A stretch of 31,463 nt of DNA from Patescibacteria group bacterium (GTDB lineage Bacteria; Patescibacteriota; Minisyncoccia; Phycocordibacterales; DSPV01): contig JBBUFP010000014.1 of the NCBI GenBank assembly GCA_038056445.1, positions 1-31,463 on the forward strand, written 5' to 3'. The notes under the pieces were generated by a model. That model was not told where the DNA came from. It saw only the letters and a list, made by a program, of their open reading frames with translations, and made no database searches. This document shows, in pieces, positions 4,940 through 28,688 of this stretch (positions are counted from its first letter, which is position 1; each line of letters begins with the position of its first letter). The translations under genes were made by a program, and so were the position numbers.

Positions 4940-5512
4940 ATGAATAACAACTTGAAAACAAAAATCAAAAATCTCAAACTGATGGTCACCGATTTTGACG
5001 GCGTGTGGACGGATGGTAAGGTTTATTTTTCTCAAACCGGAGAGGAAACGGTGCTTTGTAGCCGGAAGGACACGCTTCGGATAAAGGAGATAAAAGCATT
5101 AGGCGTTGATATCGTGGTTATCTCAAAAGAGGGAAACCCGGTAGTTATGGCGCGTTGCGAGAAGATGAAGGTGGAATGTTTCCAGGGAGTGGATGATAAA
5201 TTGCCGCTGCTCAAGCAGCTTCTTGAGAAGAAAGGTGTTCGGCCGGAAGAGACCGCTTTTGTCGGCGATGACATCAATGATGTGAAATGTTTAAAGTTTG
5301 TCGGCTTGCCGATAACGGTTGCCGATGCTCACAATGATTGCAAAAAAGTCGCGCTTTATACGACCACTCGTAAAGGCGGCGACCACGCGATGCGCGAGAT
5401 TTTTGATTTGATTCTTTGGTCTCAAACCGCGGTGTTTTTTGTTGGTTTACCAGCAGGTTCGGCCGCCATCAACTATAACGGTGCTACCGGTCATAAAAGA
5501 AGAAGCGTCTGA
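4940..5512 (+). CDS. KdsC-like HAD phosphatase (Kdo-8-P / Kdn-9-P / Neu5Ac-9-P phosphatase family)
   Basis: DFDGVWTDG motif I, VISKE motif II, K, GDDIND motif IV and GGDHAMRE. Confidence 0.85.
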   Translation: MNNNLKTKIKNLKLMVTDFDGVWTDGKVYFSQTGEETVLCSRKDTLRIKEIKALGVDIVVISKEGNPVVMARCEKMKVECFQGVDDKLPLLKQLLEKKGVRPEETAFVGDDINDVKCLKFVGLPITVADAHNDCKKVALYTTTRKGGDHAMREIFDLILWSQTAVFFVGLPAGSAAINYNGATGHKRRSV

Positions 5513-6286
5513 ACACATAAAAAGCACCACCCCTTTGTATTCGTCGGGCTTAGCCATTCGGCCGAGGGGAATTTGTTTAGCTAATTTTGCCACGAATTCG
5601 TCTGGCTGATTGTTGTAGACGCCGCCGAAAGCCACGGCGTTTGAACGCACGCCTTTATCGGCCCAATAAGTGGCGAGGTATTTGGAAAGACCAATTAGTC
5701 CGTGCTTGACCGCCGAATAAGTTACCGGCTTGACCGGCTGAACGGCATCTTTTAAACCCGGCTTTTTATACAATTCCTGATTGGGCGCCACGATGCCAAG
5801 GTCCGAGGCGATGTTTAAAATAACACCCTTGCCGTTTTTAGCCATCAACGCGCCGATGTGCTTGCTCATTAAGAAAGCGCCGGTCAAACCGACGGCGATA
5901 TCGTTGTTCCAGTGCTCGAGAGGAAAGTTTTCCAAACGGGAAAAGTTTTTCATCCCATCTTCCACTTTCGGGTTATTGGCGGCGTTGTTGATGAGGATGC
6001 CAATTTGTCCCACTTCGGCGGTGATTTTTTTTACCACCGAGGCAATTTGCTTTTCATCGGTAATGTCAAGCCGATAACTGAAAACTTTTTTCGGATAAAG
6101 TTTGTTCAACGGTAAAACGGTTGCCTTTAATCTTTTTTCATCTATATCAGTCAAAATCGCGCGACCACCGCCTTCCAGAATCGCTTCGGTGTGGCGCTTG
6201 CCCAGCAAGCCGGCGGCGCCGGTGATGACCGCGACGGCGTTTTTTAAATTGAATGTCCCCAGGGTTTTAGCTATTGTTTTATTCAT
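5447..6286 (-). CDS. SDR oxidoreductase, PtmA-like
   Basis: TGAAGLLG, NNAA, NIAS..G, YSAVK and DGG motifs. Confidence 0.85.
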   Translation of the reverse strand: MNKTIAKTLGTFNLKNAVAVITGAAGLLGKRHTEAILEGGGRAILTDIDEKRLKATVLPLNKLYPKKVFSYRLDITDEKQIASVVKKITAEVGQIGILINNAANNPKVEDGMKNFSRLENFPLEHWNNDIAVGLTGAFLMSKHIGALMAKNGKGVILNIASDLGIVAPNQELYKKPGLKDAVQPVKPVTYSAVKHGLIGLSKYLATYWADKGVRSNAVAFGGVYNNQPDEFVAKLAKQIPLGRMAKPDEYKGVVLFMCSDASSFMTGSTVIVDGGRTCW

Positions 6287-6290
6287 TGAT

Positions 6291-7118
6291 CTATTTTTTT
6301 ATCAAGTTTTTAATAAAATTTATATAACTTTTTAAGGTTTCTTTTTCTTTGCCATCCTCGCCGCGGGCAACTTGAAGAATTATACTTCCCTGGTATTTAT
6401 TTTTCTTCAGTGTTCTGAAGAATTTTTCAAAGTTAACATTTCCAGCGCCGAGAGGAACTGTCGTGCCATGAAGCAGCCGGTCTTTAATATGGATGTTGGC
6501 GATGTATGGCGACAAAGTGTTTAATTCTTCTACCACATTATAACCCAAGGCAGCGCTATTACCGCTATCATAATTGGCTTTTATGGTTTTGCTATTAAAT
6601 CTTTTAAGCAACGACAGAAATCTTTTGGGCGGCAAATCGGTTTCTAATCCAATAGTGATGCCCAAGCTTTTTGCCAGTGGCCTAACTTGACTTAAGGCGT
6701 CGATTAGTTCTTTTTCTTCGCCATCGGTTTTTATTGAGGAATTATCCACCAAAGGGATTTCTATGTTTTTTGCGCCAATTGCCGCCGCCGCTTTCAGCAA
6801 ACGCTTTAGGACGAGCAAGTTTTGTTTTTTAACTTTGGCTGTTACGCGAAAAAAAGGAACACGCATAAAGTAATCGGCTAAGATATGGCGAACTGCCACA
6901 CCATACTTTTTCTGGAGCCGGTTTATTTTCTTTAAGCCAGCTTTGGACCAAAGGGGATTTTTCTCATAATGTTCTTTATCAAAAATAAATTCAATTTCAT
7001 CAAGCCCGACTGCTTTGGCCGAGGGAAATTCGTTTTCCCAGTTTTCAAAAGGGAAAAATTGGATTGGTCGTTCGCGTCTCGGCGTTAGGCGACCTTGTAT
7101 TATGCCAATTTTAAACAT
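6291..7118 (-). CDS. Xylose-isomerase-like TIM-barrel protein (sugar-phosphate isomerase/epimerase family)
   Basis: GIIQGRL start, LETD, YDSGN, HIKD and LGAGNV motifs. Confidence 0.75.
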   Translation of the reverse strand: MFKIGIIQGRLTPRRERPIQFFPFENWENEFPSAKAVGLDEIEFIFDKEHYEKNPLWSKAGLKKINRLQKKYGVAVRHILADYFMRVPFFRVTAKVKKQNLLVLKRLLKAAAAIGAKNIEIPLVDNSSIKTDGEEKELIDALSQVRPLAKSLGITIGLETDLPPKRFLSLLKRFNSKTIKANYDSGNSAALGYNVVEELNTLSPYIANIHIKDRLLHGTTVPLGAGNVNFEKFFRTLKKNKYQGSIILQVARGEDGKEKETLKSYINFIKNLIKK

Positions 7119-7126
7119 TTAGTTTT

Positions 7127-8896
7127 TTATAGATTTATTTTTTTACCTGAAGCTAGCGACCTTTTCATTGCTACGATAATTTCCATGACGGGCAAATTTT
7201 CCCTGATGCCATTTGTCGGTTTGTTTTTGCTCGCGATAAGATTTAGAAAGTGTCTCGTTTCTTCCAAGAACATGTCGTTGCGGTTGAAATTCGCTGGTTG
7301 CTGGAACTCTCGGACTTTTCCATCAAGAGGAATTAGTTTCAATTTGCCGTCAAAATAGTCCCATCTTAAGCGGCCTTTTTCACCAGTCGCTTCCAGAAAG
7401 CGGACAGCTGGCTGCTTGAAATAATCCAAATGAAGTTCAACATTAAAGTGATTATAGCGCCAAATCGCGGAGACGCAATTTTCAGCGTCAGTCTCCAGGT
7501 CGCCGACTTTGCCGCCGGCGGCAAAAACCCAATTGGGCTTGCCGAAGAGCCAAAATAGAAAATCAATTTCATGGCTTTGGGTAGTAATGGCTCCGCCGCC
7601 TAGATTTTTTCGGCTGGCATAAGACACTTTGTAACTTTCCCATGAATGCCAGTCAGTGACCCTTTCTCCAATGTGCGCCTCCACTGATATTATCTGACCA
7701 AGCTCATTATTTTCCAGATTTTTTTTGAATTCTTTAAGCAGGGGATGGAAACGGTGATTGAAAGCGACCAAGGCGACCAGTTTCCTTTTTTCAATTTCCT
7801 TCTCTAATTTTTTAACTCCAACCATTGTGTCGGAAAGTGGTTTTTCAATCATGACATGGCAACCGGCTTGGGCCGCTTTCAGTGCCGTCCGGACATGCAA
7901 GCTTGTTGGGTTGGTAATAATGGCGGCCATCGGTTGCTCTTTCAGAGCGGCGTCAAGATCTTGATAAACTTTTAGGTTTGGGTTTTTACTCAAAAATTCA
8001 TCGCCGAACGATTTAGTGCCCAAACCGGTTCTGAAGATTATAATATCGGAAGGTTGGTAGCCCAAAGCAAGCAGGTTTTCCGTATGGCGTTTACCTATAC
8101 TTCCCAAACCGCAGATAAGGATCCTTTTGGAATTGCCATTTATTTTGTTTTCGTTAGGATAATTGGCTTTTAAGTAATCAGATACTTGGAACTTCTGATT
8201 CTTAAGAAGAGTTTCAACATACTTCAAGTCACTTTGGGTGTCAATGTCGCCGATGTCGGGAGTTAGGAAAGCAAGAATCTTGGGACCATGAATGACGGGA
8301 TTTTTTAAGACGAACGAGCTTTTGAGTATATCAACATAACTGTCGGGTTTGAAGGTTGGCGGAAACGATTGGCGGTGGAGGTTGTGATAATCGGGACGGG
8401 GGTCGTTTGGAAATAGGCCGACAAAAAATTTACCCTCAAGGGCGAAACATTTCTGTGGTACCGTATTTATTTTATGGCCGGAGCGCAGGCTTGTCGCTTC
8501 CGGATGTTTTAGCATTGTCTCTATGGCCTCATTTATTTTCTCCGGAGCGCGGAGCGGGGAAGTTGGACGGAGATGAACAAAATAATCCGGAATTTTTCCT
8601 TCGTTCTTTTGGAGCCATTCTAGCGCGTGGATAACAAATTCTCGGTCGGTTGAGGTGTCGCCGGAGATTTCAGCGGGGCGTAAGAATGGAACTTCAGCGC
8701 CGTATTTTTTGGCAAGGTCGGCGATTTCCTGGCTGTCGGTTGAAACTATAATCCGCGCGATTTTTTTTGTCAGTTTCGCGGCGGCGATGGAGTAGGCAAT
8801 TAGCGGAAAACCGCCGATTGGCAGGATATTTTTTTTCGGAATGCTTTTTGAGCCGCCCCGGGCCGGAATAAGAGCGTAAATAAGTTTTTTATTCAT
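7127..8896 (-). CDS. Fusion of a CMP-nonulosonate synthetase (NeuA family) and a Gfo/Idh/MocA oxidoreductase
   Basis: N-terminal half: PARGGSKSIPKKN, STD, EVPFLRP, LRPTSPLR, DIDT..D. C-terminal half: ILICGLGSIGKRH, EKP, GGGAITTQSHEID. Confidence 0.85.
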   Translation of the reverse strand: MNKKLIYALIPARGGSKSIPKKNILPIGGFPLIAYSIAAAKLTKKIARIIVSTDSQEIADLAKKYGAEVPFLRPAEISGDTSTDREFVIHALEWLQKNEGKIPDYFVHLRPTSPLRAPEKINEAIETMLKHPEATSLRSGHKINTVPQKCFALEGKFFVGLFPNDPRPDYHNLHRQSFPPTFKPDSYVDILKSSFVLKNPVIHGPKILAFLTPDIGDIDTQSDLKYVETLLKNQKFQVSDYLKANYPNENKINGNSKRILICGLGSIGKRHTENLLALGYQPSDIIIFRTGLGTKSFGDEFLSKNPNLKVYQDLDAALKEQPMAAIITNPTSLHVRTALKAAQAGCHVMIEKPLSDTMVGVKKLEKEIEKRKLVALVAFNHRFHPLLKEFKKNLENNELGQIISVEAHIGERVTDWHSWESYKVSYASRKNLGGGAITTQSHEIDFLFWLFGKPNWVFAAGGKVGDLETDAENCVSAIWRYNHFNVELHLDYFKQPAVRFLEATGEKGRLRWDYFDGKLKLIPLDGKVREFQQPANFNRNDMFLEETRHFLNLIASKNKPTNGIRENLPVMEIIVAMKRSLASGKKINL

Positions 8897-8909: not shown

Positions 8910-8937
8910 AATATAGCTCATGTTAAGATTTTGTCAA
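8910..8937 (-). promoter_or_regulatory. Sigma70-like promoter for the NeuA-Gfo / TIM-barrel / SDR unit
   Basis: TTGACA(8937-8932)-16 nt-TATATT(8915-8910), 13 nt before ATG 8896; no SD. Confidence 0.65.
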
Positions 8938-8948
8938 TGGCCGTTTTT

Positions 8949-10220
8949 TTATCCAATCCACCCAAGTATTTTTTTGAGCGAATCGGGAGTGATTATTTTA
9001 TTTGGTTGTTGGTATTGTTTTTCTAAGGCGTTGTTTTTAAAGGATTGGAGCAAAGAACGCAATTCATCTATGCCGGTTATAAATCTTTTAATAGCGAAGA
9101 AGGAACGGCCCGATTCTATTTGGGGCAGTTTGGAAAGATTCACAAAAATCGCGTCTTTGTTCATTGCCAAAGGAATAAAATTAGTAGTAGAAACACCGGC
9201 GATATAAAGCTCGCTCAAGCCAATGAGCTCGTTGTTGTCGGCAATCGGATTCATAAATTTGACCCCATAGCGATTAAGTTTCTGGTACTGGCCGATGTCT
9301 TCCGAAGGGTGGGGTTTGAATAAAATATCAAATTCTGATTGAGGGCAAATTTCCCGAAGGGTCTTGATAATCGTTTCCGTCAGCTGATATTGTTCTTGGT
9401 CGGTGAGGACGGCAATATCTTTTCTGTTAAAGGGCGTGGAGTAGAAAATAATATTTCGTTTGGACCGGTCAATATTGTGCCGTTTAGCCAATTCCTGGCG
9501 TTTATTTTTGTCATTGGCTAGCTGATTTTTCATTTGTTCACTAAGGTAAAAATCTAAATAACCGACCACGGTCATTTTTTCTTTAGGGATGCCTCTCTCA
9601 ATAAAAAATTCTAGAGTTTGTTCGTTGATGACGCCAAACCTTTTGGCTTTGCCGCCGCCAATCATTCCCTTTGACCAATTTCTCGGTTTATCAAGGACAA
9701 AACCAAGCAAAAAGTTTTTGATTTTGAGGTAGAGTGGTTTGCCGAAACGATAGCTAAACTTGCGCCAAGCGGGCGTTTCTTTTTTTAATAAAATTCTCTG
9801 ACCCGGGTAAGTGAGCGCCCATTGAAGCACCATAGTGTCAATTTGCCGTTGATTGGCTTGTTCCATAAGATAGCCCGAATAGAAACCTTGGTCGTTGGTG
9901 GCGATTATTTTTACCGGGCGCTCCTTATCAAGTAATTTATTAATTTCTTCGGTATAATGTTTATGATTTTTCAAGATCGCGTAAAAAGGTATGTATCTTG
10001 ATAAAAAATTAATTGCCGGCGGTTCAACCGCATAGAACGGGTGTTGATTGATTCTGGCGTATTCCAGCATTTTGCCGTAGGATTTTCTGCCGAAAATAAT
10101 CAGGAATTTGACTTCATAATGCTCGGCTATGAAAGGCAAAAGTTTTTCAAAATATTTAAAACTCCCCACATAATGGGGGATTAAAAAGAGTAATGGTTTA
10201 GAATGGGGTTGCGTTGGCAT
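8949..10220 (-). CDS. GT-B fold putative glycosyltransferase with HP and ST motifs (candidate sialyl/NulO transferase)
   Basis: RPVKII..ND, VLQW, VVGY, FKPHPSED and GVSTT resemble the HP and S(S/T) motifs of bacterial GT-B sialyltransferases. Confidence 0.55.
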   Translation of the reverse strand: MPTQPHSKPLLFLIPHYVGSFKYFEKLLPFIAEHYEVKFLIIFGRKSYGKMLEYARINQHPFYAVEPPAINFLSRYIPFYAILKNHKHYTEEINKLLDKERPVKIIATNDQGFYSGYLMEQANQRQIDTMVLQWALTYPGQRILLKKETPAWRKFSYRFGKPLYLKIKNFLLGFVLDKPRNWSKGMIGGGKAKRFGVINEQTLEFFIERGIPKEKMTVVGYLDFYLSEQMKNQLANDKNKRQELAKRHNIDRSKRNIIFYSTPFNRKDIAVLTDQEQYQLTETIIKTLREICPQSEFDILFKPHPSEDIGQYQKLNRYGVKFMNPIADNNELIGLSELYIAGVSTTNFIPLAMNKDAIFVNLSKLPQIESGRSFFAIKRFITGIDELRSLLQSFKNNALEKQYQQPNKIITPDSLKKILGWIG

Positions 10221-10281: not shown

Positions 10282-11154
10282 ATGGCAAAGGATTTCTCTA
10301 TTACAGTCGGCAATAAAAAGATTGGCCACAATCATCCGGTTTTTATCATTGCGGAAATCGGCATCAATCATAATGGCGATTTAGATATAGTTAAAAAACT
10401 TATTGATGTGGCGGTAGACGCGGGCGCCGACGCGGTTAAATTTCAAAAGCGGACCATTGAGGTTGTCTATATGCCGGAAGCTCTGGCCGCGCCGCGCGAA
10501 AGCCCATTCGGTAAAACCAACGGTGATTTGAAGAAGGGTTTGGAATTTGGCGTCAAGGAGTATAAAACGATAGACGGATATTGCCGGCAGAAGGGCATTC
10601 TTTGGTTTGCTTCCTGTTGGGATGAGGGGGCGGTGGATTTTATTGAGAAATTTAATCCGCCGGTTTACAAAATTGCTTCGCCTTCTTTAACTGACCATGG
10701 CCTACTGCGCCACATCAAAGCGAAAAAGAAGCCCATTATTCTCTCAACAGGGATGAGCGATTTGGCGATGGTCAGAAAAGCGGTCTCAGTGCTCGGCAAG
10801 AAAAATCTGGCGTTGATGCATTCCGTTTCCACTTATCCGGCTTCGCATACGGAGCTTAACCTTTTATGTATTCCAACGCTTAGAAAGACCTTCGGTTTAC
10901 CTACGGGTTATTCTGGTCACGAGGTTGGGATAACTTCGCCCTTGGCGGCTGTGGCGCTGGGCGCTTGCCTTGTGGAGAGGCACATCACTCTTGACCGAGC
11001 GATGTGGGGTTCCGACCAAGCCGCTTCGCTTGAGCCATACGGTTTCAAGAAAATGATTATCTATATTCGCCAGTTTGAAGCGTCTTTGGGCGATGGAGTC
11101 AAAAGGATTATGGAATCCGAAGTGCCGGTTTTGAAAAAGCTGCGGCGGAAATAA
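10282..11154 (+). CDS. neuB: NeuB-family nonulosonate synthase, short form without the C-terminal antifreeze-like (SAF) domain
   Basis: IIAEIGINHNG, KFQKR, STGM, HSVSTYP, GYSGHE, ERH.TLDR and GSDQAASLEP; the protein ends at 290 aa. Confidence 0.9.
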   Translation: MAKDFSITVGNKKIGHNHPVFIIAEIGINHNGDLDIVKKLIDVAVDAGADAVKFQKRTIEVVYMPEALAAPRESPFGKTNGDLKKGLEFGVKEYKTIDGYCRQKGILWFASCWDEGAVDFIEKFNPPVYKIASPSLTDHGLLRHIKAKKKPIILSTGMSDLAMVRKAVSVLGKKNLALMHSVSTYPASHTELNLLCIPTLRKTFGLPTGYSGHEVGITSPLAAVALGACLVERHITLDRAMWGSDQAASLEPYGFKKMIIYIRQFEASLGDGVKRIMESEVPVLKKLRRK

Positions 11155-11156
11155 AA

Positions 11157-11921
11157 ATGGCGAAAAAACAAGATAAAAAATTGATTTACGCTTTGATTGG
11201 CGCCCGCGGCGGTTCTAAAGGTATTCCTCGTAAGAATATTGTGCCGATTGTTGGCCATCCTTTAATTGCTTATTCCATTGCGGCGGCAAAATTGGCAAAA
11301 AATATTGATCGGATAGTTGTGTCTACTGACAGTGAGGCAATTGCGGCAGTGGCGAAAAAATATGGCGCTGAAGTGCCGTTTATGCGTCCAGCCAAAATTT
11401 CCGGCGACCAATCTTTGGATGTAGAATTTTTTCGGCATGCTTTGGATTGGTTTAAAAAAAATGAAGAAAGAATGCCTGATTTTATCGTTCATCTCCGACC
11501 AACTATCCCCGTTCGGGAAGTTTCCGTTCTTGATAAAGCTATTTCAGAAATGCTCGCCGATAAAGATGCTACCGCGCTTCGTAGCGCCGAAAAAGTTCCT
11601 CCGTCTTCAATTTTCAAATCTTTTCGCCTGAAAGATTCTTACTGCGAATTTTTCGGCAAAGAATTGTTTGCACCCAACGAGGAATTTTTTAATTATCCCC
11701 GCCAGCAATTGCCGAAAACCTACCATGTCAACGGGTATATTGATGTTATAAACGCTCGCACTTTCCTTAAGACCGGTTTACTTTACGGGGAAAAGATGAG
11801 AGCATTTATAAACGAAGAACCGGCAGTTGATATTGATGAACCAGCGGATTTACTTAAAGCTGCTGAAGAATTAAAAAAGCCGCAATATAACGATTTACAT
11901 AATTTTTTAAAAAGTATTTAA
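11157..11921 (+). CDS. neuA: CMP-nonulosonate synthetase (acylneuraminate cytidylyltransferase family)
   Basis: ARGGSKGIPRKN, STD, EVPFMRP, LRPT.P.R, NGYID and DIDEPAD. Confidence 0.9.
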   Translation: MAKKQDKKLIYALIGARGGSKGIPRKNIVPIVGHPLIAYSIAAAKLAKNIDRIVVSTDSEAIAAVAKKYGAEVPFMRPAKISGDQSLDVEFFRHALDWFKKNEERMPDFIVHLRPTIPVREVSVLDKAISEMLADKDATALRSAEKVPPSSIFKSFRLKDSYCEFFGKELFAPNEEFFNYPRQQLPKTYHVNGYIDVINARTFLKTGLLYGEKMRAFINEEPAVDIDEPADLLKAAEELKKPQYNDLHNFLKSI

Positions 11922-11931
11922 TTTGAGTTTT

Positions 11932-12732
11932 ATGAAAAACAAAAAAATAAATCAAAACAAAACCATTTTTGAATTAGCGGATTTGACCGGGAAAAAGGCG
12001 GTGGTAACCGGCGGCGGCGGGCATTTAGGTTTTCAAATGAGCAAAGCCCTGCTTGAGCTTGGCGCAGATGTTATTGTTTTAGCTCGCGATAAAGAGAAGA
12101 TTAAGTCCCTCTCAAAAGAGTTCGGCAAAAAGATTTCTTTCATTAAAGTTGACCTCAACAACAAAGAAGAAGTAACGGCCCTTGATAAAAAATTGCCGTC
12201 AATGATTCATATTTTGATAAATAATTTTTATACTTGGCCAACTAATCCCCATTTTGAAAAAATGCAATGGGACGAAGCGGTGGCGACCATGACCGCTGGA
12301 ATCGTTTCGCCCCTTTTCCTTTCAAAAGTTGTTTTTCCTAAAATGAAAAAAGGCGGCTCAATTATTAATATTGGTTCAATGTATGGGATGATTTCACCCG
12401 ATTTTAGGATTTATCGAAATAGTGGCATGGGCAATGCTTTGGAATACGGCGCGACCAAGGCGGCTCTGATTCAGGCGACAAAATATCTGGCGGTTAAGGG
12501 GGCGCCTTCGGGTATTAGAGTTAACGCTATCAGTCCGGGACCATTTTCTCGGCCTGGCGCTTTTGATAATGGCAAGGATTGGTTTAAGGAGGAACTTATA
12601 AACAAAATGCCGCTTCACCGGATCGGTGAGAATTGGGAGCTAAAGGGAGTTATTGCTTTTCTTGCTTCCGATTTGAGCAGCTATGTGACCGGTCAGAATA
12701 TCGCGGTGGATGGCGGTTGGACGATTTGGTAA
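11932..12732 (+). CDS. SDR oxidoreductase, PtmA-like
   Basis: TGGGGHLG, NIGSMYG, YGATK, RVNAISPG and DGGWT. Confidence 0.85.
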   Translation: MKNKKINQNKTIFELADLTGKKAVVTGGGGHLGFQMSKALLELGADVIVLARDKEKIKSLSKEFGKKISFIKVDLNNKEEVTALDKKLPSMIHILINNFYTWPTNPHFEKMQWDEAVATMTAGIVSPLFLSKVVFPKMKKGGSIINIGSMYGMISPDFRIYRNSGMGNALEYGATKAALIQATKYLAVKGAPSGIRVNAISPGPFSRPGAFDNGKDWFKEELINKMPLHRIGENWELKGVIAFLASDLSSYVTGQNIAVDGGWTIW

Positions 12733-14722: not shown

Positions 14723-14735
14723 GTGTCGGAACGGG
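14709..14735. terminator. Intrinsic terminator-like hairpin between convergent genes
   Basis: Perfect 10-bp stem cccgttccga / tcggaacggg with a 7-nt loop; followed by ATTTTTTA on the minus strand. Confidence 0.7.
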
Positions 14736-14751
14736 TTGGTTGTTGTCCGGA

Positions 14752-15087
14752 CTATTTTGCCGCGAACAGGGCATTGACCGGAAAACTTTCGAAAAAGATG
14801 AAGGTTAGGATTCCTTCCTCAAGGCAGAGGAGTTTTCTTTTACCCGATGTGTCTGCGACCGCGGTGGAAATAATCAGCGAACTGGATTCACTGGGCTTAA
14901 TTTTTGCCAGTGTTTTCATACCTTGGAAACCAAGAGGTATCAGCCCAAGTTTGCGGATTGCTTTGTCCATGGCCTCCTCGTTGAGTTCTGAATCAACCGC
15001 TTTAACCAGTGATATTTCGATTATCCCCTCTCCGTCAGTTGGAACCGGAATCTTTCTTACCACTTGCACACTTGTTTTTTTTATCAC
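14752..15087 (-). CDS. Small hypothetical protein (111 aa, GTG start; start uncertain)
   Basis: Open frame bracketed by a consensus promoter upstream and a terminator downstream; no recognisable family. Confidence 0.5.
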   Translation of the reverse strand: MIKKTSVQVVRKIPVPTDGEGIIEISLVKAVDSELNEEAMDKAIRKLGLIPLGFQGMKTLAKIKPSESSSLIISTAVADTSGKRKLLCLEEGILTFIFFESFPVNALFAAK

Positions 15088-15122
15088 AATCTTCGCCTTT
15101 GTTGAGGTTCTGTTCAGCCCAT

Positions 15123-15174
15123 AAGTTACCGCATTATTATTTTCTTGTCAAGAAACTACAATATGTGCTAATCT
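15123..15174. promoter_or_regulatory. Back-to-back promoters sharing a TTGTCAA -35 region
   Basis: Minus strand: TTGACA(15151-15146)-17 nt-TAACTT(15128-15123). Plus strand: TTGTCA(15145-15150)-18 nt-TAATCT(15169-15174) with an extended TG. Confidence 0.55.
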
Positions 15175-15218
15175 AGACTGGTGAAAAAATCAGTCCAATT
15201 ATTATTTATTGCTTTGCC

Positions 15219-15729
15219 ATGTTAAGGGACCGGCGTTCTCAACTGTGTCGAGGACTTGATTTTCAGAAAGCTGGCATCCAGGCCATAAGCCGCGCCATTG
15301 GGGCGACGGCGCCCGGAAATGTCTTGGAACTCGGTAGCGGTAACGGTTTTAACCTGTTGGCGCTTTCCGCCATGCACCCGGAAATCAAGGAGTGGCAGGG
15401 CGTAGAATTTACAAAAAGCGGTATCGCCGCGTCCGAGAAATTAAAGCGGGAACCGCCGTTTGACGCTCTGATTTACATGACCGAGTTGCCGCGAGAGGAG
15501 ATTACCAGAAGATTAAACGGGGCGCGGATTGAATATCGTTAAGGTGATGTGCAGTCACTGCAAAAGTTACGATTACTTCCGCTCCAGTGTTAATGTTGTG
15601 GAACGAGCCGGCCTCAAGATTCTAAAATTTGAGCGCCTGCCGCTTAACAAGATTCCGCAGTCGGTGGGTTTGCTTCTTTGCGCCCCAGCCAAGGTGGGGC
15701 GCACTCCCACAGACTTTATTTTTTTCTAA
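15219..15729 (+). pseudogene. Disrupted class I SAM methyltransferase
   Basis: VLELGSGNG motif I, then a premature TAA (15540-15542) followed in frame by GDVQSL. A shifted frame then gives a C-terminus-like YFRSS...VERAGLKILKFE; the central motifs are missing. Confidence 0.7.
15679..15703. terminator. GC-rich hairpin at a convergent junction (possible terminator, no clear U tract)
   Basis: 9-bp stem tgcgcccca / tggggcgca with a 7-nt loop, 13 nt past the stop of the 15716-16399 gene. Confidence 0.4.
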
Positions 15730-16409: not shown

Positions 16410-18434
16410 TTACTTATCGCCTTTCAAGAATTTATATTTTGAAAGTTTAGCTAGAGCTATTCGAAATTCCCGGTAATCATTGATGTGGCCTTGCCAGATT
16501 TCCGGTATCCAACTTATGCCCCCGCTTTCTTTAGGAAGATGTTGCTCGAGAATTTCGAACACCTTTTCAAAAGGCACATCACCTTCGCCTATTTGCAATC
16601 CTTCTTTATAGCAACCGCGGCCGTCAGCGATGTGCAGGTGACGGACCAAGGGCGCCACTTTTTTGATATATTCCAGGTAATCTTGATTTTCGGCGACACA
16701 GAAGAGCCAGGCGTGGGAGAGGTCTAGGCACATATTTAAATTCAGTTTGTTGCAAAACTCAATCATTTCGTCAGCGGCCCCGAAGACATTGTGTTTCCAT
16801 AATCCGCCGAAGTGCCAGCTAAAAGCAGGCAGATTTTCCGGCAGAAGAGTTACGCCTTTGTAGTCTAAACATTTGAATGCTTCTATCGCGCGGTTAAGGA
16901 GTTTTTTTGGTTGCGGGTGGGGCGTGATGGTTATGCCCCCGACATGGATTACAATACCGGGGATTCCCTCGAAGTGCTCGGCGATTTCTCGGGTTTTGTC
17001 AATGGTCTTTTGAATAATTTCGATTGAACTTTTCCAGATCCGTTCGTTTTCGGAAGCTAGATCTACTTCCGTTCTTTCGTTGTATTCAGGCGCATGAACG
17101 AACAGCTGAAAAGGGTATTTGGAGTTCTTCTCAAATTTGAAGTCGAGGTCTTTGTCATTTACATGAAATTCCAAAAGAGTCGGTTTCGGTTCGAATTTCA
17201 TCAGTTGATTTAATTCGAAAAAGCGCGCCTTTAATCCCCACCTCGTTTCAATCTTGCCAATGTGGTTTTCAATTTGCCGAGCGTCAAGGTCGTCATTGGT
17301 GAAAAATTCATCTTCAGCAATCAATCTTTTGGCGGTTTTTCCTACGAGGTCAAAAATTCTCTGGGGAGAAATTCCGAACCCAGGGCCTTTCACAGTTATC
17401 ATGTCTCGAGTAATCTTAGTGCCGGGAGCGATATCAGTCCCGGCTGTCAAGCTCTTACGTAAAATTAGTTTGTTCATGACTTCGCCGCGACTAACCTGTT
17501 TTACCGGCAGGCCGAGAGCGATTTCACATTCGCGAATCTTTTTAACTAATTCTTTAAATTGGCTGGGTAAAAGCGAGGCCGCGTGGTCCGGCCCTTCGGC
17601 CTCTCGATCAAGAGTGATATGCCTCTCGATAACTCTGGCTCCCAGAGCGATGGCGGCCAGAGTCGGTTCAAGGCCTGTTTCGTGGCCGGAATAACCGACG
17701 GGAACGCCATAACGATGTTTGAGGATTTTAATGAAAGATAAGTTTAAGGTGTCCAAACCGGCCGGATAAGAGCTTTGGCAATGAAGCAACACAAAAACAG
17801 CCCGGGCGCGATGCAAAAAAGCGACGGTCCTTTCAATTTCGTCAATAGTGGACATACCGGTTGAAACAATCAGCGGTTTGTTTTCTTTAAGTAGCCGTTC
17901 CAATAAGGGAATGTTCACTAAATCAGCTGAAGACACCTTGTAGAGCGGGGGAGTAATCACCTCCTTTAGGAAGTCCACGCTTTGTTCGTCAAAAGGAGTC
18001 GCAAAAAAAACCAGTCCGTGTTTATCGGCCTGAGCTTTTAAGGCGCGATATTCTTTTTCCCCAAACTCGCTTTCTTTGAGAATCGGTATAACATAACGAA
18101 GCGCTTGGTCGGTCAGATTAGGATTTTCCACCACTTCTTTTTGATAGACCGCCAGCAGTTGTCTTTTCTGAAATTTGACAGCGTCAGCTCCGGCTTCGGC
18201 AGCGGCGTCAATAAGTTTTAAAGCCTCGGTAAGTTTGCCATTGTGGTTGATTCCGATTTCGGCAATGATAAAGACGGGCACCTTTTCGCCGATGGCTTTA
18301 TTGCCAATTTTTATTGTCTGTGGCGATGGGGCCAGAATCTTTCTAGCTTTGATTATGAATCTGGTCCACAGACGACGGCTCCATAGTTTGCGCGTATCCC
18401 CATCCCCGAGAATTTTTAGAATCTTATTTAGCAT
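16410..18434 (-). CDS. NeuB-family synthase + SAF domain + C-terminal xylose-isomerase-like TIM barrel (three-domain fusion)
   Basis: EIGINHNG, KFQKR, HCQSSYP, GYSGHE, ERH, GPDHAASL; then LRKSL..DI..G..IT.DM..KGPG; then VIHVGG, ENLP, DLSHA, HLHIADG, EIWQGH. Confidence 0.85.
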   Translation of the reverse strand: MLNKILKILGDGDTRKLWSRRLWTRFIIKARKILAPSPQTIKIGNKAIGEKVPVFIIAEIGINHNGKLTEALKLIDAAAEAGADAVKFQKRQLLAVYQKEVVENPNLTDQALRYVIPILKESEFGEKEYRALKAQADKHGLVFFATPFDEQSVDFLKEVITPPLYKVSSADLVNIPLLERLLKENKPLIVSTGMSTIDEIERTVAFLHRARAVFVLLHCQSSYPAGLDTLNLSFIKILKHRYGVPVGYSGHETGLEPTLAAIALGARVIERHITLDREAEGPDHAASLLPSQFKELVKKIRECEIALGLPVKQVSRGEVMNKLILRKSLTAGTDIAPGTKITRDMITVKGPGFGISPQRIFDLVGKTAKRLIAEDEFFTNDDLDARQIENHIGKIETRWGLKARFFELNQLMKFEPKPTLLEFHVNDKDLDFKFEKNSKYPFQLFVHAPEYNERTEVDLASENERIWKSSIEIIQKTIDKTREIAEHFEGIPGIVIHVGGITITPHPQPKKLLNRAIEAFKCLDYKGVTLLPENLPAFSWHFGGLWKHNVFGAADEMIEFCNKLNLNMCLDLSHAWLFCVAENQDYLEYIKKVAPLVRHLHIADGRGCYKEGLQIGEGDVPFEKVFEILEQHLPKESGGISWIPEIWQGHINDYREFRIALAKLSKYKFLKGDK

Positions 18435-18446
18435 TGACAATTTATA

Positions 18447-23432: not shown

Positions 23433-24389
23433 ATGAACAAACAAAAACAACTAACCAAAGATTTTTTCAATGATGCGTCAAGAGAGTGGTTTGAACGAAC
23501 CTATGACCCGGCGGAACAATTTTTGAAGTTTCCGGGCAACAGGGCGAGAATGGAAATAGCTTTAAGCGAGATTAAAAATTTATCGGTTAAGGGCGCGTTT
23601 CTTGACATTGGTTGCGGTACGGGGCAACTGGTGATTGAACTTTTGAAAAAAGGGGTTCGGGCTACCGGGATTGATGTTGCCGAGAAAATGATTGAGATTG
23701 CGAAAAATAATCTTGCTAAAGAAAAACTTTCATTTAATCCCAATCCAAACGAAATCTTTGCGGTGATGAATTTAGCTGAACTTGGTAAAACCACGGCTCA
23801 TTATGACGCGGTGACCGCCTTGGGGCTTCTTGAGTATTTATCAAAAGATGATGAGCTCTTTTCTGTTCTTAAAAAAAATGTGAAAAAGGACGGTTATGCG
23901 TTCGTGGAATGCCGGAATAAATTTTTTAATCTTTTCTCGGTCAATAATTATACCGAGTCAACGGCGAAGACCAAGATGCTCGCCCCGCTTATCAGAGAAA
24001 TGGCCGAAGTTGATAAATACAGCCCGATTTCTTCAAGGAATATTCCCGCGATTCAGGCGGAGGTCTCTCAAAAGATTGCTGACTTTTTGAAAGAGAGTGC
24101 CGGTAAAAGCGAATGGCTCGAAACATCTATTCCGAAGCACCTCGACTATCCCCAAGAAATGATACGCCGTCAACACACGCCAAAAGAACTTGAAGCGTCG
24201 GCTCATCGTTTTGGTTTTACTTTAAAATATGTTGTCTATTGGCACGCCCACCTTTACCCGCCGTCTTTTAAGAAAGAATTTCCCAGAATCTATAATAAAA
24301 TATCATTCCTCGAAGCCCCGCTTGGGTATACTTCACTTGGCGCTTGGATGTGCTCGTCTTTTGTTGCCGTTCTAAAGAAACAGGAATGA
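23433..24389 (+). CDS. Class I SAM methyltransferase
   Basis: FLDIGCGTG, GIDVAEKMI and YDAVTALGLLEY. Confidence 0.85.
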   Translation: MNKQKQLTKDFFNDASREWFERTYDPAEQFLKFPGNRARMEIALSEIKNLSVKGAFLDIGCGTGQLVIELLKKGVRATGIDVAEKMIEIAKNNLAKEKLSFNPNPNEIFAVMNLAELGKTTAHYDAVTALGLLEYLSKDDELFSVLKKNVKKDGYAFVECRNKFFNLFSVNNYTESTAKTKMLAPLIREMAEVDKYSPISSRNIPAIQAEVSQKIADFLKESAGKSEWLETSIPKHLDYPQEMIRRQHTPKELEASAHRFGFTLKYVVYWHAHLYPPSFKKEFPRIYNKISFLEAPLGYTSLGAWMCSSFVAVLKKQE

Positions 24390-25423
24390 AAGATAAATTA
24401 AATGAAGAAAAAAAGCGGGTTTTTATCACCGGCATTACCGGTCAGGATGGCTCTTATCTATCGGAATTTTTGGCAAAAAAGAATTGTGAAATTTTTGGTT
24501 TGACTAGCAAAAAATATTCCGATAATGCGGTTTCAATGGCAGCGTTAAAAAAGCTTGGTGCTCAAGTCATTTTAATTGACGGCGATATCACTGACACTGG
24601 TTTGCTGGCGAAAATTTTTAAGGATATAAAACCGCACGAAATTTATAATTTGGCTGCAATCTCAAGCGTCAGCGAATCTTTCAAGGTTCCCGAAAAAGTA
24701 ATGGAGGTTAATTTTCACGCTTTTAAAAGGTTAGTTGATGAGGCAATAACTGTTGTGCCGAAAGTTAGAATTTATCAGGCCTCGTCCAGTGAAATGTTCG
24801 GCCAAGCGTCTGCGCCACAGAATGAAAAAACCGATTTTATGCCGGTTAGTCCTTACGGCAAATCAAAACTTCGCGCTTATCAGGAAGTCGTCTTGGAGTA
24901 TCGTAGGAAAAAAGGCGTTCATATTTGTTCCGGAATTATGTTTAATCACGAATCGCCGAGGCGGGGCGAAGGTTTCGTGACTTCAAAAATTATTACCGAT
25001 TTATCTAAAGTAAAATTAGGCCTGCTTGCTCACCTTGAATTAGGGAATTTGGATGTGGAGAGGGATTGGGGTTTTGCCGGAGATTATGTGAAAGCTATGT
25101 ATTTGATTCTGAATTATGATAAAGCCGATGATTATGTGATTGCCACCGGCAAAAGTCACACTGTGCGGGATTTTGTGAATGAGACGGCGAAAAATCTCGG
25201 TTTGAAAATAAAATGGCGGGGACGGGGCGAAAAAGAAGAAGCCGTTGACGACAATGGAAAAATTTTAGTGAAAGTTAATCCGATTTTTTACCGCCCTAAA
25301 GAACTTAGCGTGACTATTGGTGATAGCGCTAAGGCGAGAAAAATTCTTGGTTGGAATCCGGTAGTAAATTTTGAAGGGTTGGTAAAAATGATGGTGAAAG
25401 CCGCCATGGAGCATTATGTTTGA
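24386..25423 (+). CDS. gmd: GDP-mannose 4,6-dehydratase
   Basis: ITGITGQDGSYL, YNLAA, ASSSE, SPYGKSK, NHESPRRG..FVT.KI and GNLD..RDWGFAGDYV; ATGA overlap at 24386. Confidence 0.9.
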   Translation: MKDKLNEEKKRVFITGITGQDGSYLSEFLAKKNCEIFGLTSKKYSDNAVSMAALKKLGAQVILIDGDITDTGLLAKIFKDIKPHEIYNLAAISSVSESFKVPEKVMEVNFHAFKRLVDEAITVVPKVRIYQASSSEMFGQASAPQNEKTDFMPVSPYGKSKLRAYQEVVLEYRRKKGVHICSGIMFNHESPRRGEGFVTSKIITDLSKVKLGLLAHLELGNLDVERDWGFAGDYVKAMYLILNYDKADDYVIATGKSHTVRDFVNETAKNLGLKIKWRGRGEKEEAVDDNGKILVKVNPIFYRPKELSVTIGDSAKARKILGWNPVVNFEGLVKMMVKAAMEHYV

Positions 25424-26396
25424 TTATTCAAAAACAAAAAAAGAAAATATTACCTGTAACCTTTGCGGTAGCGATGATTTTTCTCTGCTAGCTAAAAAAT
25501 CAAAAAATAATTTGCCGGTGGCAACGGTAATGTGCCGAAATTGTTCTCTAATCTATATCAATCCGCGAATGACAAGCGAGGACTACGACAATTATTATAA
25601 ATATTTTTATCGAGTGGACAGAAATACGATTAAAGGCACAACCACTGACACCAGATTGGAACGGAATTTTGAAAACGCCAGAAAATTCGGCCGAGCGCTT
25701 GGTCGGCGCTACCAAAAATTTTTTAAGCCGGGGCTGGCGGTTGATGTCGGTTCTTCCACCGGCGGCGTGCTCTACGGCTTGCGAGAAGCGCTGCCAGCTT
25801 TAAAAATTCTTGGCATTGAACCGTCGGTGGCGGAATCGGAATTGGCAAGAAGTCGCGGGGTGCCGACCAAAACCGTTTTGTTTGAAAATTTCCGCGATGT
25901 TTTGCCCGAAGTGCCAGCTAACATTTTTTGTGTTCAGAGTTTGAACCATCTTTTGGACCCCAAGGGCTTTATGGCTTGGGCTTATGAGGCGTTGACTGCT
26001 GGTGGTTCGCTGTTTTTGGCGGTGAAAAATTTCCGACATCAGGCGCGCCGCGCCGGCTCAATAGAAGCCGGCGTTCAAATTGACCACCCTTATATGTTCA
26101 CGCCCGAGACCTTGCGGGCCATGATTGAATCCGTTAGTTTTAGAATAGTGGTTTTTGAAATTGACGAGGGTAAAAGCCAAGATGAATTATTAATTCAACG
26201 AGCCGAGGGTCTGCCCAGGCATCACATTCGAGTGGTGGCGGTGAAGGATAATTTAAATAAAGTTCAAGTAGTTTTGCCAAGTTTTTGGGCACAGCTTAAG
26301 CTTCGTTTAGCGCTTAGCTGGCCGATTTTGAAGCTGTTTTACCTCGCCAAGTATTCCCATTGGTTGACTTGGCAAAAATCAAAGAGTGTAGTATAG
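25416..26396 (+). CDS. Class I SAM methyltransferase with a Zn-ribbon N-terminus (paralog of 13739-14722)
   Basis: CNLC...CRNCSLIYINPRMT, DVGSSTGG, GIEPS, QSLNH, NFRHQ and IDH..MFTPE. Confidence 0.8.
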   Translation: MFDYSKTKKENITCNLCGSDDFSLLAKKSKNNLPVATVMCRNCSLIYINPRMTSEDYDNYYKYFYRVDRNTIKGTTTDTRLERNFENARKFGRALGRRYQKFFKPGLAVDVGSSTGGVLYGLREALPALKILGIEPSVAESELARSRGVPTKTVLFENFRDVLPEVPANIFCVQSLNHLLDPKGFMAWAYEALTAGGSLFLAVKNFRHQARRAGSIEAGVQIDHPYMFTPETLRAMIESVSFRIVVFEIDEGKSQDELLIQRAEGLPRHHIRVVAVKDNLNKVQVVLPSFWAQLKLRLALSWPILKLFYLAKYSHWLTWQKSKSVV

Positions 26397-26404
26397 TGTT
26401 GGTA

Positions 26405-27523
26405 ATGACAAAAAGACGGCTCAAAACAATAGCGATTCCGGGTACTGACAGAATCCTTGGTGGCGAGGAAGTTTTTTTCGTGGCGGAAATTGGCAAGGGC
26501 TTCATTCAGACCAAAGAAGACCAGCCGATGAGAGAATATCTGGCCAATGCCAAACGATTGATTGATGCAGCGGTGGCTGCCGGTGCCGACGCGGTTAAAT
26601 TCCAAACTCACGAGGTTAGTGATGAGCAAGCTGACATACCGATTGTCTCGCTTCATTTTAAGGGTGCCGAGCGTTATGCTTGGGTAAAAAGGAACACCGA
26701 AGCAACACCGCTTTTTTTCTGGCGAGAGTTGAAAAATTACGCCGCTCGCAAAGGCATTATTTTTTTCTCCACCGCCATGAGTCGGGGGGCGGCGGAAAAA
26801 CTTACCAAAGTTGATGTGCCGCTTTGGAAAGTTGGTTCTGGCGATGTGGAAGATTATGTTTTACTGGATTATCTCACCGGCACTGGCAAACCGGTCATCA
26901 TTTCCACCGGTATGGTTAGTTTTGCCGAGCTGGATGAAATCGTCGCTTATTTTAGAAAGCACTTAACCCCGTTGGCTATTTTGTATTGCGTCAGCGAATA
27001 TCCCTGCCCGCCGGAAAAATTTAATTTAGCCAGTATTGAAAAAATAAAAGAAAAATATCCGGAAGTCATTGTAGGCTTTTCTGACCATTCGGTGGGCGAT
27101 ATCAATCCGGTATTAGCCGCCGTTAAAGTCGGCGCGCGGATTGTGGAAAAACATTTTTCATTGGCGCGCGATTTGTGGGGTTCCGACCATAAGGTTTCCA
27201 TGATACCGGTCGAGTTTGCTGAAATGGTGCGCGCTGTGCGCGCCGGCGAACACAAAAAAGTCGCCCAGCAGAAATTTTACGGCAATAAAAATCGCGAGCT
27301 TGATGGTGCCACCAACCAATTCCGTCCTTACTTCAAGAAATTATTGGTGGCGGCGCGAGTTATCAAGAATGGTGAAAAGATTGCTAAGGATATGATTCAC
27401 GCCTTGCGCCCTGCGCTTCATCTTAAAGGTTTGCCATCGCGCGATTTTCATAAAGTAGTTGGCCGCGAAGTAATTCGCCAAATTAAAAAAGGTGAGCTGT
27501 TAACCAAGCAAAATGTTCGTTAA
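26405..27523 (+). CDS. neuB: NeuB-family nonulosonate synthase with SAF domain (divergent N-terminal motif)
   Basis: AEIG, KFQTH, KVGSGD, STGM, CVSEYP, GFSDH, EKH, GSDH and C-terminal ALRP...IKKGE. Confidence 0.85.
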   Translation: MTKRRLKTIAIPGTDRILGGEEVFFVAEIGKGFIQTKEDQPMREYLANAKRLIDAAVAAGADAVKFQTHEVSDEQADIPIVSLHFKGAERYAWVKRNTEATPLFFWRELKNYAARKGIIFFSTAMSRGAAEKLTKVDVPLWKVGSGDVEDYVLLDYLTGTGKPVIISTGMVSFAELDEIVAYFRKHLTPLAILYCVSEYPCPPEKFNLASIEKIKEKYPEVIVGFSDHSVGDINPVLAAVKVGARIVEKHFSLARDLWGSDHKVSMIPVEFAEMVRAVRAGEHKKVAQQKFYGNKNRELDGATNQFRPYFKKLLVAARVIKNGEKIAKDMIHALRPALHLKGLPSRDFHKVVGREVIRQIKKGELLTKQNVR

Positions 27524-28688
27524 ACCCAAACAAAAAAGAAAAGTTTGTTTCGTCATCACGAGTTTTATCCATTACTCGCGCGGTCTTTTTATTTTGGAAG
27601 AATTGAAGAATCGGCCGGATGTGGAACTACACATTGTCATTAGCGGCACCGCTTTGCTCGCCAAATATTCTTCAAAATTTTCCTATGTGAAAAATATTCT
27701 GGAGCGCGAGGGTTATAACAATCTTCACGAACTTTATTTTAATTTGGAAGGCGATAGTCATCTTACCAAAGCCAAAACCGCCGGCATTGGTATTGTGGAA
27801 TTTTCCACTTTTTTCAATCAGCTTAGACCGGATGTGGTAGTATTGCGCGGCGACCGGTTTGAAGTGCTGTCGGCCGCCGTGGCCGCCGCTTACTTGCAAA
27901 TTCCCATTGCCCATCTTGAGGGTGGCGACATTACCGGTTCCATAGACGAGAGCGTCCGCCATGCCATTACCAAATTATCGCATTTACATTTTGCCACCAA
28001 TGAAGACGCCAAGAAAAGAATTTTGCGGATGGGGGAAAATCCCAAATATGTTTTCAATTTTGGCAGTCCGGAAATTGAAGTGGTTTATCGGATAATCAAT
28101 GGCAAACACCATGTTGATTTTAGCCAGACCGGTTCCGGCGCGCCGTTTGATATCAAATTGGATTTTTTGATGGTGATGTATCAGCCGGTCACGACCGAAA
28201 CCGAACGATTGGCTGAATACACCAAAACGATTCTGGAAGCTGTCCACGAGCTCACGATTCCGACGCTTTGGTTCTGGCCCAACTTTGACACCGGTGCTGA
28301 AGAAATTTCCCATACCTTGCGGGTTTTTCGCGACCAGGTGAAGGAACACAAAATTCGTTTTATGCGTTATTTGCCGCCACGCGATTTTATCTGGCTTTTG
28401 AAGCACACTCGGGCGCTGGTCGGCAATTCTTCGGCTGGTATTAAAGAATCCTCTTATCTTGGCGTGCCGGTGGTAAATATCGGCAATCGTCAGGGTTCGC
28501 GTTTGCGCACTAAAAATGTTTTGGATGTGCCGCACAAAAAAGAGCCCATCAAAAAAGCCATTGAAAAACAAATGAAAAAAGGCCGCTATCAACCGTCCAA
28601 ACTTTATTTCGCCAACGGCACCGCCCGCAAAATCGCCAAAACTTTAGCTGAAGCCAATCTTTATGTCCAAAAAAAATTCCACAACTAA
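27513..28688 (+). CDS. neuC: UDP-GlcNAc 2-epimerase (hydrolysing), NeuC family
   Basis: GDRFE, AHLEGGD.TGSIDE..RHAITKLSHLHF and GNSSAGIKE; lies between neuB and neuA. Confidence 0.85.
   Translation: MFVKPKQKRKVCFVITSFIHYSRGLFILEELKNRPDVELHIVISGTALLAKYSSKFSYVKNILEREGYNNLHELYFNLEGDSHLTKAKTAGIGIVEFSTFFNQLRPDVVVLRGDRFEVLSAAVAAAYLQIPIAHLEGGDITGSIDESVRHAITKLSHLHFATNEDAKKRILRMGENPKYVFNFGSPEIEVVYRIINGKHHVDFSQTGSGAPFDIKLDFLMVMYQPVTTETERLAEYTKTILEAVHELTIPTLWFWPNFDTGAEEISHTLRVFRDQVKEHKIRFMRYLPPRDFIWLLKHTRALVGNSSAGIKESSYLGVPVVNIGNRQGSRLRTKNVLDVPHKKEPIKKAIEKQMKKGRYQPSKLYFANGTARKIAKTLAEANLYVQKKFHN

Follow-up and report, generated by a model that had tools for sequence, protein, structure and literature searches.

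Capsules, flagella, S-layers and pili carry nonulosonates (NulOs), sugars that influence immune recognition and the attachment of phages. To our knowledge, the known diversity of NulOs stems almost wholly from the tailoring of nucleotide-hexoses before the NeuB step, and the main example so far of editing after CMP activation is the Ela system, whose structures were solved recently. In Acinetobacter baumannii KL49 this system comprises ElaB, ElaA and ElaC, a CMP-NulO synthetase, a Gfo/Idh/MocA oxidoreductase and a short-chain dehydrogenase/reductase (SDR) that together form a CMP-8-epi-legionaminic acid module, in which ElaA is proposed to oxidize C8 of CMP-Leg5,7Ac2 and ElaC to reduce the resulting ketone from the other face (PMC13656337). 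The same three families meet in a 31,463-nucleotide stretch from a small groundwater bacterium of the Patescibacteria group (contig JBBUFP010000014.1; hereafter the window), where an operon at 8896-5447 of the minus strand encodes a CMP-NulO synthetase (cytidylyltransferase, CT) fused to a Gfo/Idh/MocA oxidoreductase (GFO), a TIM barrel with E-D-H-Q metal ligands (hereafter Q-type TIM) and an SDR (SDR1). On balance we favor the view that this operon is the tailoring arm of a NulO pathway for a surface glycan of Patescibacteria (candidate phyla radiation, CPR), and comparison across genomes indicates that the four genes belong to a many-phyla module, which probably makes a still-undescribed sialic acid-like variant.

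The likeness to Ela is one of families, motifs and shared structures: 6IFD, 3EZY and 6UH2, the search models with which ElaB, ElaA and ElaC, respectively, were solved, are also among the PDB matches of the window's parts, the GFO half shares with ElaA the 90-residue spacing of Lys and His (K352/H442 and K91/H181, respectively), and SDR1 carries a long insertion between S161 and Y190, recalling the elongated loop that precedes the catalytic Tyr of ElaC. As expected of an Ela-type set, the window's CMP-NulO synthetase has an intact active site and its GFO has the catalytic Lys (in an EKP motif) and His. However, Ela consists of three separate proteins without a TIM barrel and comes with a full set of genes for legionaminic acid (lga), whereas in the window CT and GFO are fused, a TIM barrel stands between oxidase and reductase, and precursor genes for legionaminic (Leg) or pseudaminic (Pse) acid are absent. 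Further relatives are PtmA (an SDR), PtmF (an oxidoreductase of ~326 aa) and the CMP synthetase LegF of Campylobacter and Plesiomonas, which are adjacent in a NulO locus (PMC4481668) and differ from the window by having neither TIM barrel nor fusion. SDR1 itself scores 176 bits against PRK09186 and 130 bits against the PtmA model, whose cut-off is 350. Bacteroides thetaiotaomicron makes Kdn through a Kdn-9-phosphate synthase, a Kdn-9-phosphate phosphatase and a CMP-Kdn synthetase; the module in the window likewise includes a NeuB-family synthase, a YrbI/KdsC-family phosphatase and a CT, which are the likely core that supplies the tailoring enzymes. The known Bacteroides pathway is without oxidoreductase, TIM or SDR tailoring.

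The fused protein (P0001, 589 aa; 7127-8896, minus strand) was delineated by Pfam, NCBIfam and PDB matches. Its CT half (residues 1-245; 8162-8896) matches CTP_transf_3 at residues 8-134 (81.6 bits, Pfam) and carries PARGGSK at 11-17 and GDID at 216-219, with the NCBIfam PseF model reaching residue 231; its GFO half (residues 259-589 plus stop; 7127-8122) aligns with the N- and C-terminal GFO_IDH_MocA domains of Pfam at residues 258-589 and carries GLGSIG (263-268), the EKP motif with Lys352, and His442, the latter two residues being invariant in 26 relatives. These borders agree with those of the original prediction, made from the DNA letters alone (about 8896-8160 and 8130-7127). The CT half finds NeuA (9FTB, 1.9e-33) as its top PDB match and PseF (6IFD) as its second, 3EZY is ninth in the match list of the fusion, and the NCBIfam scores for PseF (132.7 vs a cut-off of 205.7) and IolG (81 vs 355) both fall below threshold. 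SDR1 (P0003, 279 aa; 5447-6286, minus strand) is a PtmA/ElaC-like classical SDR with TGAAG (22-26), NNAA (100-103), S161, Y190 and K194, and its likeness to ElaC runs through a shared nearest structure, its top PDB match being the ElaC search model 6UH2. Inspection of the motifs found the catalytic residues intact in CT, GFO and SDR1, and comparison with a same-genus genome, introduced below, revealed that all four genes are under purifying selection (dN/dS 0.11-0.20, and 0.11 for each half of the fusion). For the CT half (8123-8896, compared with L013:4341-5156) dS amounts to 0.98, twice the 0.37-0.46 of its neighbors, which hints at recombination or a different history of this segment.

With only 8 nt between the fusion and TIM and 4 nt between TIM and SDR1, co-transcription of the three genes is very likely. 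The operon had also been credited with a promoter of its own, and a sigma-70-like match (TTGACA-16-TATATT; 8910-8937, minus strand; 11 of 12 consensus positions) indeed lies within the 52 nt that separate the fusion from the preceding gene, its -10 hexamer ending 13 nt before the ATG at 8896, in front of which no Shine-Dalgarno motif is present. It scores best among all matches of the scanned 5.6 kb; such matches are nevertheless common in AT-rich DNA of this kind (20 found vs 10.7 expected), and the operon may also be transcribed by read-through from the same-strand glycosyltransferase gene upstream. In a marine RNA run (X16), just 0.14 of the sampled sequence words were present.

Could the joined reading frame result from an error of sequencing or assembly, or represent a frameshift that disables the gene? 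The source assembly is a 0.46-Mb, 79% complete Patescibacteria genome, and its nearest relative lends the idea some footing. In the same-genus Parcubacteria group bacterium Gr01-1014_73, CT and GFO are two genes that overlap by 20 nt in different frames and encode proteins 84% (CT) and 89% (GFO) identical to the halves of the fusion. DNA alignment with this sister genome reveals that the window is shorter by exactly four nucleotides, TAAA, at 8122/8123, a 4-nt indel placed precisely at the stop, so that the TAA is gone and the frames are joined at R258/I259 (8120-8125, minus strand; ...NGNSKR/ILICGLGSIG...). The fused variants are, moreover, nearly identical and without a long fused history. 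Yet the missing stop recurs well beyond this assembly: the junction is spanned, with 0 gaps and without a listed indel, by contigs of four studies (2019-2025; the labeled ones from groundwater), one of the runs concerned carries no flag as a potential source of the window, and the 589-aa form is present on at least 14 contigs in four single-residue variants. The deletion furthermore leaves an uninterrupted frame in which no catalytic motif is damaged, and analogous fusions occur elsewhere. We therefore give an artefact or a disabling frameshift a negligible chance; the fusion is real and arose through a 4-nt deletion between two overlapping genes.

The direction of the change can be read from the GFO N-terminus. 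Stand-alone GFO relatives start with MK.L(I/V)CGLGSIG, and the Lys of this motif is retained in the sister genome and absent from the window, so that the split genes are ancestral and the fused state derived. Since the fused variants each differ by one residue, the fusion is a young, strain-level event in one nearly clonal population. The original prediction had assigned it a role in channeling activation into oxidation; the fusion may assist such a hand-over, but with two separate genes in the sister genome it is too young for selection for hand-over to be read from it. The fused and split alleles of the sister genomes do constitute a natural pair and thereby offer a clean test of whether fusion affects flux.

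In line with the domain search that had been suggested (CTP_transf_3 plus GFO_IDH_MocA), a survey of two protein collections followed by domain mapping recovered independent fusions in both orders. These include CT-GFO proteins (P0251, with 41% identity and a different linker length, P0299, P0344 and P0106), GFO-CT proteins (P0040, P0047, P0055 and P0264) and, at least once, CT-HAD-GFO (P0014), where HAD stands for a KdsC-like phosphatase, and CT is the commonest fusion partner of GFO. Other combinations join GFO to HAD (P0281), to SDR1 (P0323, whose SDR half is 39% identical to that of the window), to NeuB (P0351) and to a TIM barrel (TIM-GFO, P0354). Some sources already carry the automatic annotation 'CMP-N-acetylneuraminic acid synthetase/predicted dehydrogenase', and CT-GFO is a recurrent, catalogued and uncharacterized architecture with independent origins elsewhere. 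A possible further case in a same-family genome (G005) was not confirmed, only the CT part being found there. The nearest relatives of the CT half, in other organisms, are fused to class-III aminotransferases, a glyoxalase/VOC-type domain or a HAD phosphatase.

The Q-type TIM (P0002, 275 aa; 6291-7118, minus strand) is a xylose isomerase-type barrel matching AP_endonuc_2, with an N-terminal QGRL motif and the ligands E159, D184, H210 and Q249. Alignment with UlaE, MJ1311 and 3TVA confirms the ligand set read from the sequence earlier, with E159, D184 and H210 conserved and Gln249 (ILQVAR) where each of the three references has Glu as the fourth ligand. Far from being a local oddity, Gln249 is invariant in 35 of 35 relatives sampled, as are E159, D184, H210, QGRL and several basic residues (R10, K212, R214 and R252), and it is therefore the hallmark of a large conserved subfamily, with ~1,800 TIM homologs at 45-66% identity. 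The AlphaFold2 model (pLDDT 95.4) adopts a (beta/alpha)8 xylose isomerase-like fold, and Foldseek places it closest to UlaE (1.4e-17, TM 0.86), but Gln249 takes the fourth position of the Glu-Asp-His-Glu metal site, in which the two Glu form the acid/base pair. UlaE and the ketose 3-epimerases (DTE/DPE) are thus the best sequence and fold matches and share the E, D and H positions, but identity is ~20%, the UlaE-type NCBIfam model scores 69 vs a cut-off of 200, and UlaE belongs to pentose/ascorbate catabolism whereas the Q-type TIM is found in the context of NulO biosynthesis. In ketose 3-epimerases the fourth ligand is the second catalytic base, and its replacement by Gln makes a one-base reaction (carbonyl shift, one-sided epimerization or beta-elimination) more likely, as judged from sequence, than a two-base 3-epimerization.

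The fold neighbors of the Q-type TIM, which include YcjR and the C-glycoside lyases DgpBC and DfgAB, act on the carbon next to a keto group via a metal-bound enolate. In Escherichia coli, YcjS is a Gfo/Idh/MocA enzyme and YcjR, which retains the canonical second Glu, acts between YcjS and YcjQ. YcjR is a 3-keto-glucoside 4-epimerase whose gene accompanies those of two sugar dehydrogenases, and it serves in D-guloside/D-glucoside interconversion (PDB 6WN6); that system differs from ours in being catabolic, in handling neutral glucosides without nucleotide activation, and in the Gln of the window's barrel. A canonical Glu is also found at the fourth position in the TIM half of P0354, which otherwise keeps QGRL, E, D and H, and a Glu-type sister subfamily therefore exists that is physically coupled to the same GFO family. 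The Q-type TIM itself is almost never fused, a search for longer forms having returned one tandem TIM-TIM protein and one with an unknown N-terminal part, and the protein atlas offers only the generic name 'sugar phosphate isomerase/epimerase'. A literature search on NulO clusters with a characterized TIM barrel, and on dehydrogenases or epimerases of CMP-Kdn, brought up nothing relevant.

To place the barrel in its genomic surroundings, we collected 80 Q-type TIM loci from named genomes and searched their open reading frames with the proteins of the window. The loci come from Patescibacteria, Lachnospiraceae, Nitrospirota, Acidobacteriota, Chloroflexota, Verrucomicrobiota and others, as well as from Omnitrophota, Margulisiibacteriota, Thaumarchaeota and Nanoarchaeota. 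Within 6 kb of TIM, counted in the 50 loci that extend at least 5 kb on both sides, NeuB is present in 48, mostly as the short type without a SAF domain that the window encodes at 10282-11154, followed by an SDR1 ortholog (44), a KdsC-like phosphatase (40), CT (31), GFO (14) and NeuC (2). Directly adjoining TIM, GFO is found in 18 and another SDR in 42 of the full 80 loci, and both together in none, which suggests that the two are interchangeable as oxidases; L021 and L030, for instance, have the order SDR2-TIM-SDR1 without GFO, SDR2 being the second SDR of the window. The order TIM-GFO-SDR1 is common in Acidobacteriota, Chloroflexota and metagenomes, and an Anaerolinea metagenome-assembled genome (MAG) carries a compact five-gene version (CT-HAD, NeuB, TIM, GFO and SDR1). 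Conversely, 80 metagenome loci centered on GFO lie almost always in NeuB clusters and fall into two contexts, TIM-less CT-GFO-SDR sets, some with NeuC and NeuB, and TIM-GFO-SDR1 sets, so that TIM appears to be an optional addition to an oxidase/reductase pair. Taken together, CT, GFO, SDR1, TIM, HAD and NeuB are recurrent neighbors, pairwise fused in various ways, in many phyla.

Two further features of the TIM loci bear mention. Lachnospiraceae versions of the module encode a KdsC-like phosphatase fused to an SIS_2 phosphosugar-isomerase domain (as at L036:5497-6561), which suggests that the aldose phosphate used by NeuB is there made from a ketose phosphate; as such loci carry this separate SIS isomerase, we down-weighted the candidate role of TIM as supplier of the NeuB precursor. 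Additional enzymes also occur in TIM loci, namely class-III aminotransferases (23), acetolactate synthase-like TPP enzymes (17), glyoxalase/VOC proteins (13) and class-IV aminotransferases (13) (examples at L018:7682-8863, L018:8857-9300, L032:11852-13705 and L027:8955-9980), and the product of such loci may be an amino or branched variant.

Given the Ela precedent and fold neighbors of TIM that act beside keto groups, we lean, with modest confidence, toward an Ela-like route in which a CMP-activated sugar of Kdn/Neu type is edited through oxidation, a TIM-catalyzed reaction of the keto intermediate, and reduction. The short NeuB would form a Kdn-type sugar by condensing a hexose 6-phosphate, in the simplest case mannose 6-phosphate, with phosphoenolpyruvate (PEP), and the KdsC-like phosphatase would take off the phosphate before the CT half forms the CMP-sugar. 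The GFO half would then turn a single hydroxyl of this CMP-sugar into a ketone, in analogy to the proposal for ElaA, the Q-type TIM would act on the carbon beside the ketone via a metal-bound enolate, and SDR1 would reduce the ketone, so that an epimer or deoxy form of the Kdn/Neu-type sugar could be passed to the adjacent sialyltransferase-like enzyme. The phosphatase in question, a KdsC/YrbI-family HAD protein (4940-5512, plus strand), exceeds the cut-off of the broad YrbI subfamily model only (TIGR01670, 126.8 bits vs 106.95) and scores 115 vs 180 with the Kdn-9-phosphate phosphatase model; its gene and that of SDR1 are convergent, with 3' ends overlapping by 66 nt (5447-5512).

The backbone is probably of Kdn or Neu type, because it is a phosphatase, and not NeuC, that accompanies the module, precursor genes of Leg or Pse are absent, and DegT lies elsewhere. 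The window holds no aminotransferase/dehydratase set of the Leg/Pse type and no DegT, nor did we find linked legionaminic precursor genes (4,6-dehydratase, DegT and N-acetyltransferase) in this 79% complete genome; the assembly's only DegT (contig C10; L175, 8244-10519) follows a true GDP-mannose 4,6-dehydratase among GT4 glycosyltransferases, in what appears to be a perosamine-type cluster apart from the NulO locus. The non-legionaminic backbone of the original prediction is thereby supported. Its operon is likewise present at 8896-5447, although as only part of a module, since the short NeuB, the phosphatase, the second CT and the second SDR lie outside.

Several observations weigh against this pathway. 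With three NeuB and three CT genes in the window, the fusion may act on any of several sugars, and all NCBIfam equivalog scores of the operon and module proteins, NeuB_NnaB included, fall below the curated cut-offs. The Ela mechanism was itself proposed from genetics, structures and docking rather than from demonstration in vitro (PMC13656337), and gene fusions indicate a common pathway, not the order of its steps. Comparative genomics does link all four activities to NeuB-based pathways, as far as conserved neighborhoods can tell, and the order of the steps is where a first alternative departs: GFO, TIM and SDR could convert a common hexose phosphate to an unusual aldose phosphate that NeuB then condenses with PEP, phosphatase and CT coming last. 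The Q-type TIM indeed resembles a sugar-phosphate epimerase, its closest relative in sequence and fold being UlaE; its invariant R10, K212, R214 and R252 fit an anionic substrate; a KdsC-like phosphatase is nearly always in the module, so that a phosphorylated intermediate exists; and GFO-NeuB and GFO-HAD fusions occur. Campylobacter ptm had, together with ela, been cited as a set linked to NulO epimers, and while the shared families hold for Ela, published work places PtmA and PtmF early in CMP-Leg synthesis, in the first segment, where the precursor is made (PMC4481668). Tailoring before NeuB would, however, have the commonest fusion, CT-GFO in either order and at least once with the phosphatase in between, join the first and last steps; it sits poorly with the TIM-less GFO and SDR relatives found with NeuC and NeuB, where the precursor is a free sugar from a nucleotide sugar and no sugar phosphate precursor is expected; the Lachnospiraceae have their SIS isomerase, fused to the phosphatase, besides TIM; and ElaA and ElaC were modeled on CMP-sugars. 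These points argue for editing after activation, and we consider the precursor route distinctly improbable.

Gene order in the sister genome raises another objection, namely that the four activities form no single pathway and were brought together by rearrangement. In such a mosaic, CT-GFO with an SDR would edit the product of NeuB-SAF-TIM2 (676 aa; 16410-18440, minus strand), a fusion whose barrel differs from the Q-type TIM, through an Ela-like two-step epimerization, and the Q-type TIM and SDR1 would work with the short NeuB, the phosphatase, the second CT (CT2) and SDR2. The sister genome has NeuB-SAF-TIM2, two methyltransferases, CT, GFO and SDR1 in this order, and its Q-type TIM lies 7 kb away, directly after the glycosyltransferase and near CT2-SDR2, which counts against our pathway and against TIM as a fixed member of a CT-GFO-SDR unit. 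L108 and L158 similarly carry NeuB-SAF-TIM2 beside a CT-GFO-SDR set without a Q-type TIM, the SDR2-TIM-SDR1 loci L021 and L030 do without GFO, and GFO and the alternative SDR, never both beside TIM elsewhere, are both present in this locus. From the sister gene order and the additional NulO genes of the window, the operon may combine parts of two modules. A mosaic without a common pathway nonetheless appears unlikely to us, given the widespread TIM-GFO-SDR1 order, the physical fusion of the sister TIM subfamily to the same GFO family, the gaps of only 8 and 4 nt between the three genes of the window, and the single SDR1 ortholog seen in the locus. A catabolic role of the operon was rejected, because its surroundings are glycosyltransferases, a flippase, TagF-like enzymes and methyltransferases.

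Returning to editing after CMP activation, we tentatively raise the possibility, which we regard as doubtful at present, that the E-D-H-Q barrel is a new kind of enzyme acting on CMP-activated keto-NulOs, as a one-base carbonyl-shifting isomerase or a beta-eliminase, and that the module yields a chemically undescribed NulO. Candidate products are a side-chain epimer, a 9-deoxy or a keto derivative of Kdn or Neu5Ac, and amino forms where class-III aminotransferases are present. The main interest of the locus lies in a widely conserved module around the Q-type TIM without a characterized member, rather than in the young fusion: it suggests that enzymes for editing after activation are far more varied, spread over at least a dozen phyla and extended by an additional TIM step. 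If the possibility raised above holds true, the undescribed NulO would be widespread among CPR bacteria, gut Lachnospiraceae, Acidobacteriota, Chloroflexota and ammonia-oxidizing archaea. Cultured or culturable carriers include the mouse-gut Lachnospiraceae isolates D16-56 and 1XD21-70, the Acidobacteria isolate AB60 and Nitrosopumilus, and with a module of as few as five genes, as in the Anaerolinea MAG, the chemistry is directly testable.

Upstream of the fusion lies the sialyltransferase-like glycosyltransferase (8949-10220, minus strand), which has weak matches to A-2_8-polyST and BFO_1060, both below cut-off, and is probably a NulO transferase. It is followed on the plus strand by the short NeuB (290 aa; 10282-11154), by CT2 (11157-11921), which is 51% identical to the fused CT, and by SDR2 (11923-12732), whose orthologs flank TIM in the loci without GFO and which is therefore a candidate alternative oxidase. 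The TIM2 domain of NeuB-SAF-TIM2 shares only ~24% identity with the Q-type TIM and carries Glu as its fourth ligand. The sister genome retains this fusion, as do the metagenome loci L108, L158, L167 and L145, and a stand-alone TIM2 adjoins NeuB and a GMD-like gene in L116 and L146.

A classical NeuB-NeuC-NeuA set occupies 26360-29400 of the plus strand. It is preceded by a 4,6-dehydratase-like gene (GDP_Man_Dehyd, 358 bits) and a methyltransferase, with no aminotransferase nearby, and the whole segment (24344-29400, plus strand) could represent a route to a 9-deoxy, non-aminated NulO. In total, the 31-kb locus holds three NeuB proteins, three CMP-NulO synthetases, NeuC, six methyltransferases and four TagF-like (Glyphos_transf) enzymes, along with a polysaccharide deacetylase, a flippase and a 2-hydroxyacid dehydrogenase, which suggests several, probably O-methylated NulOs, perhaps in a teichulosonic acid-like polymer. 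Finally, a stretch of ~1 kb at 14723-15715, flanked by a methyltransferase gene and the following gene of the minus strand, contains only short open reading frames, of 133 and 107 aa.

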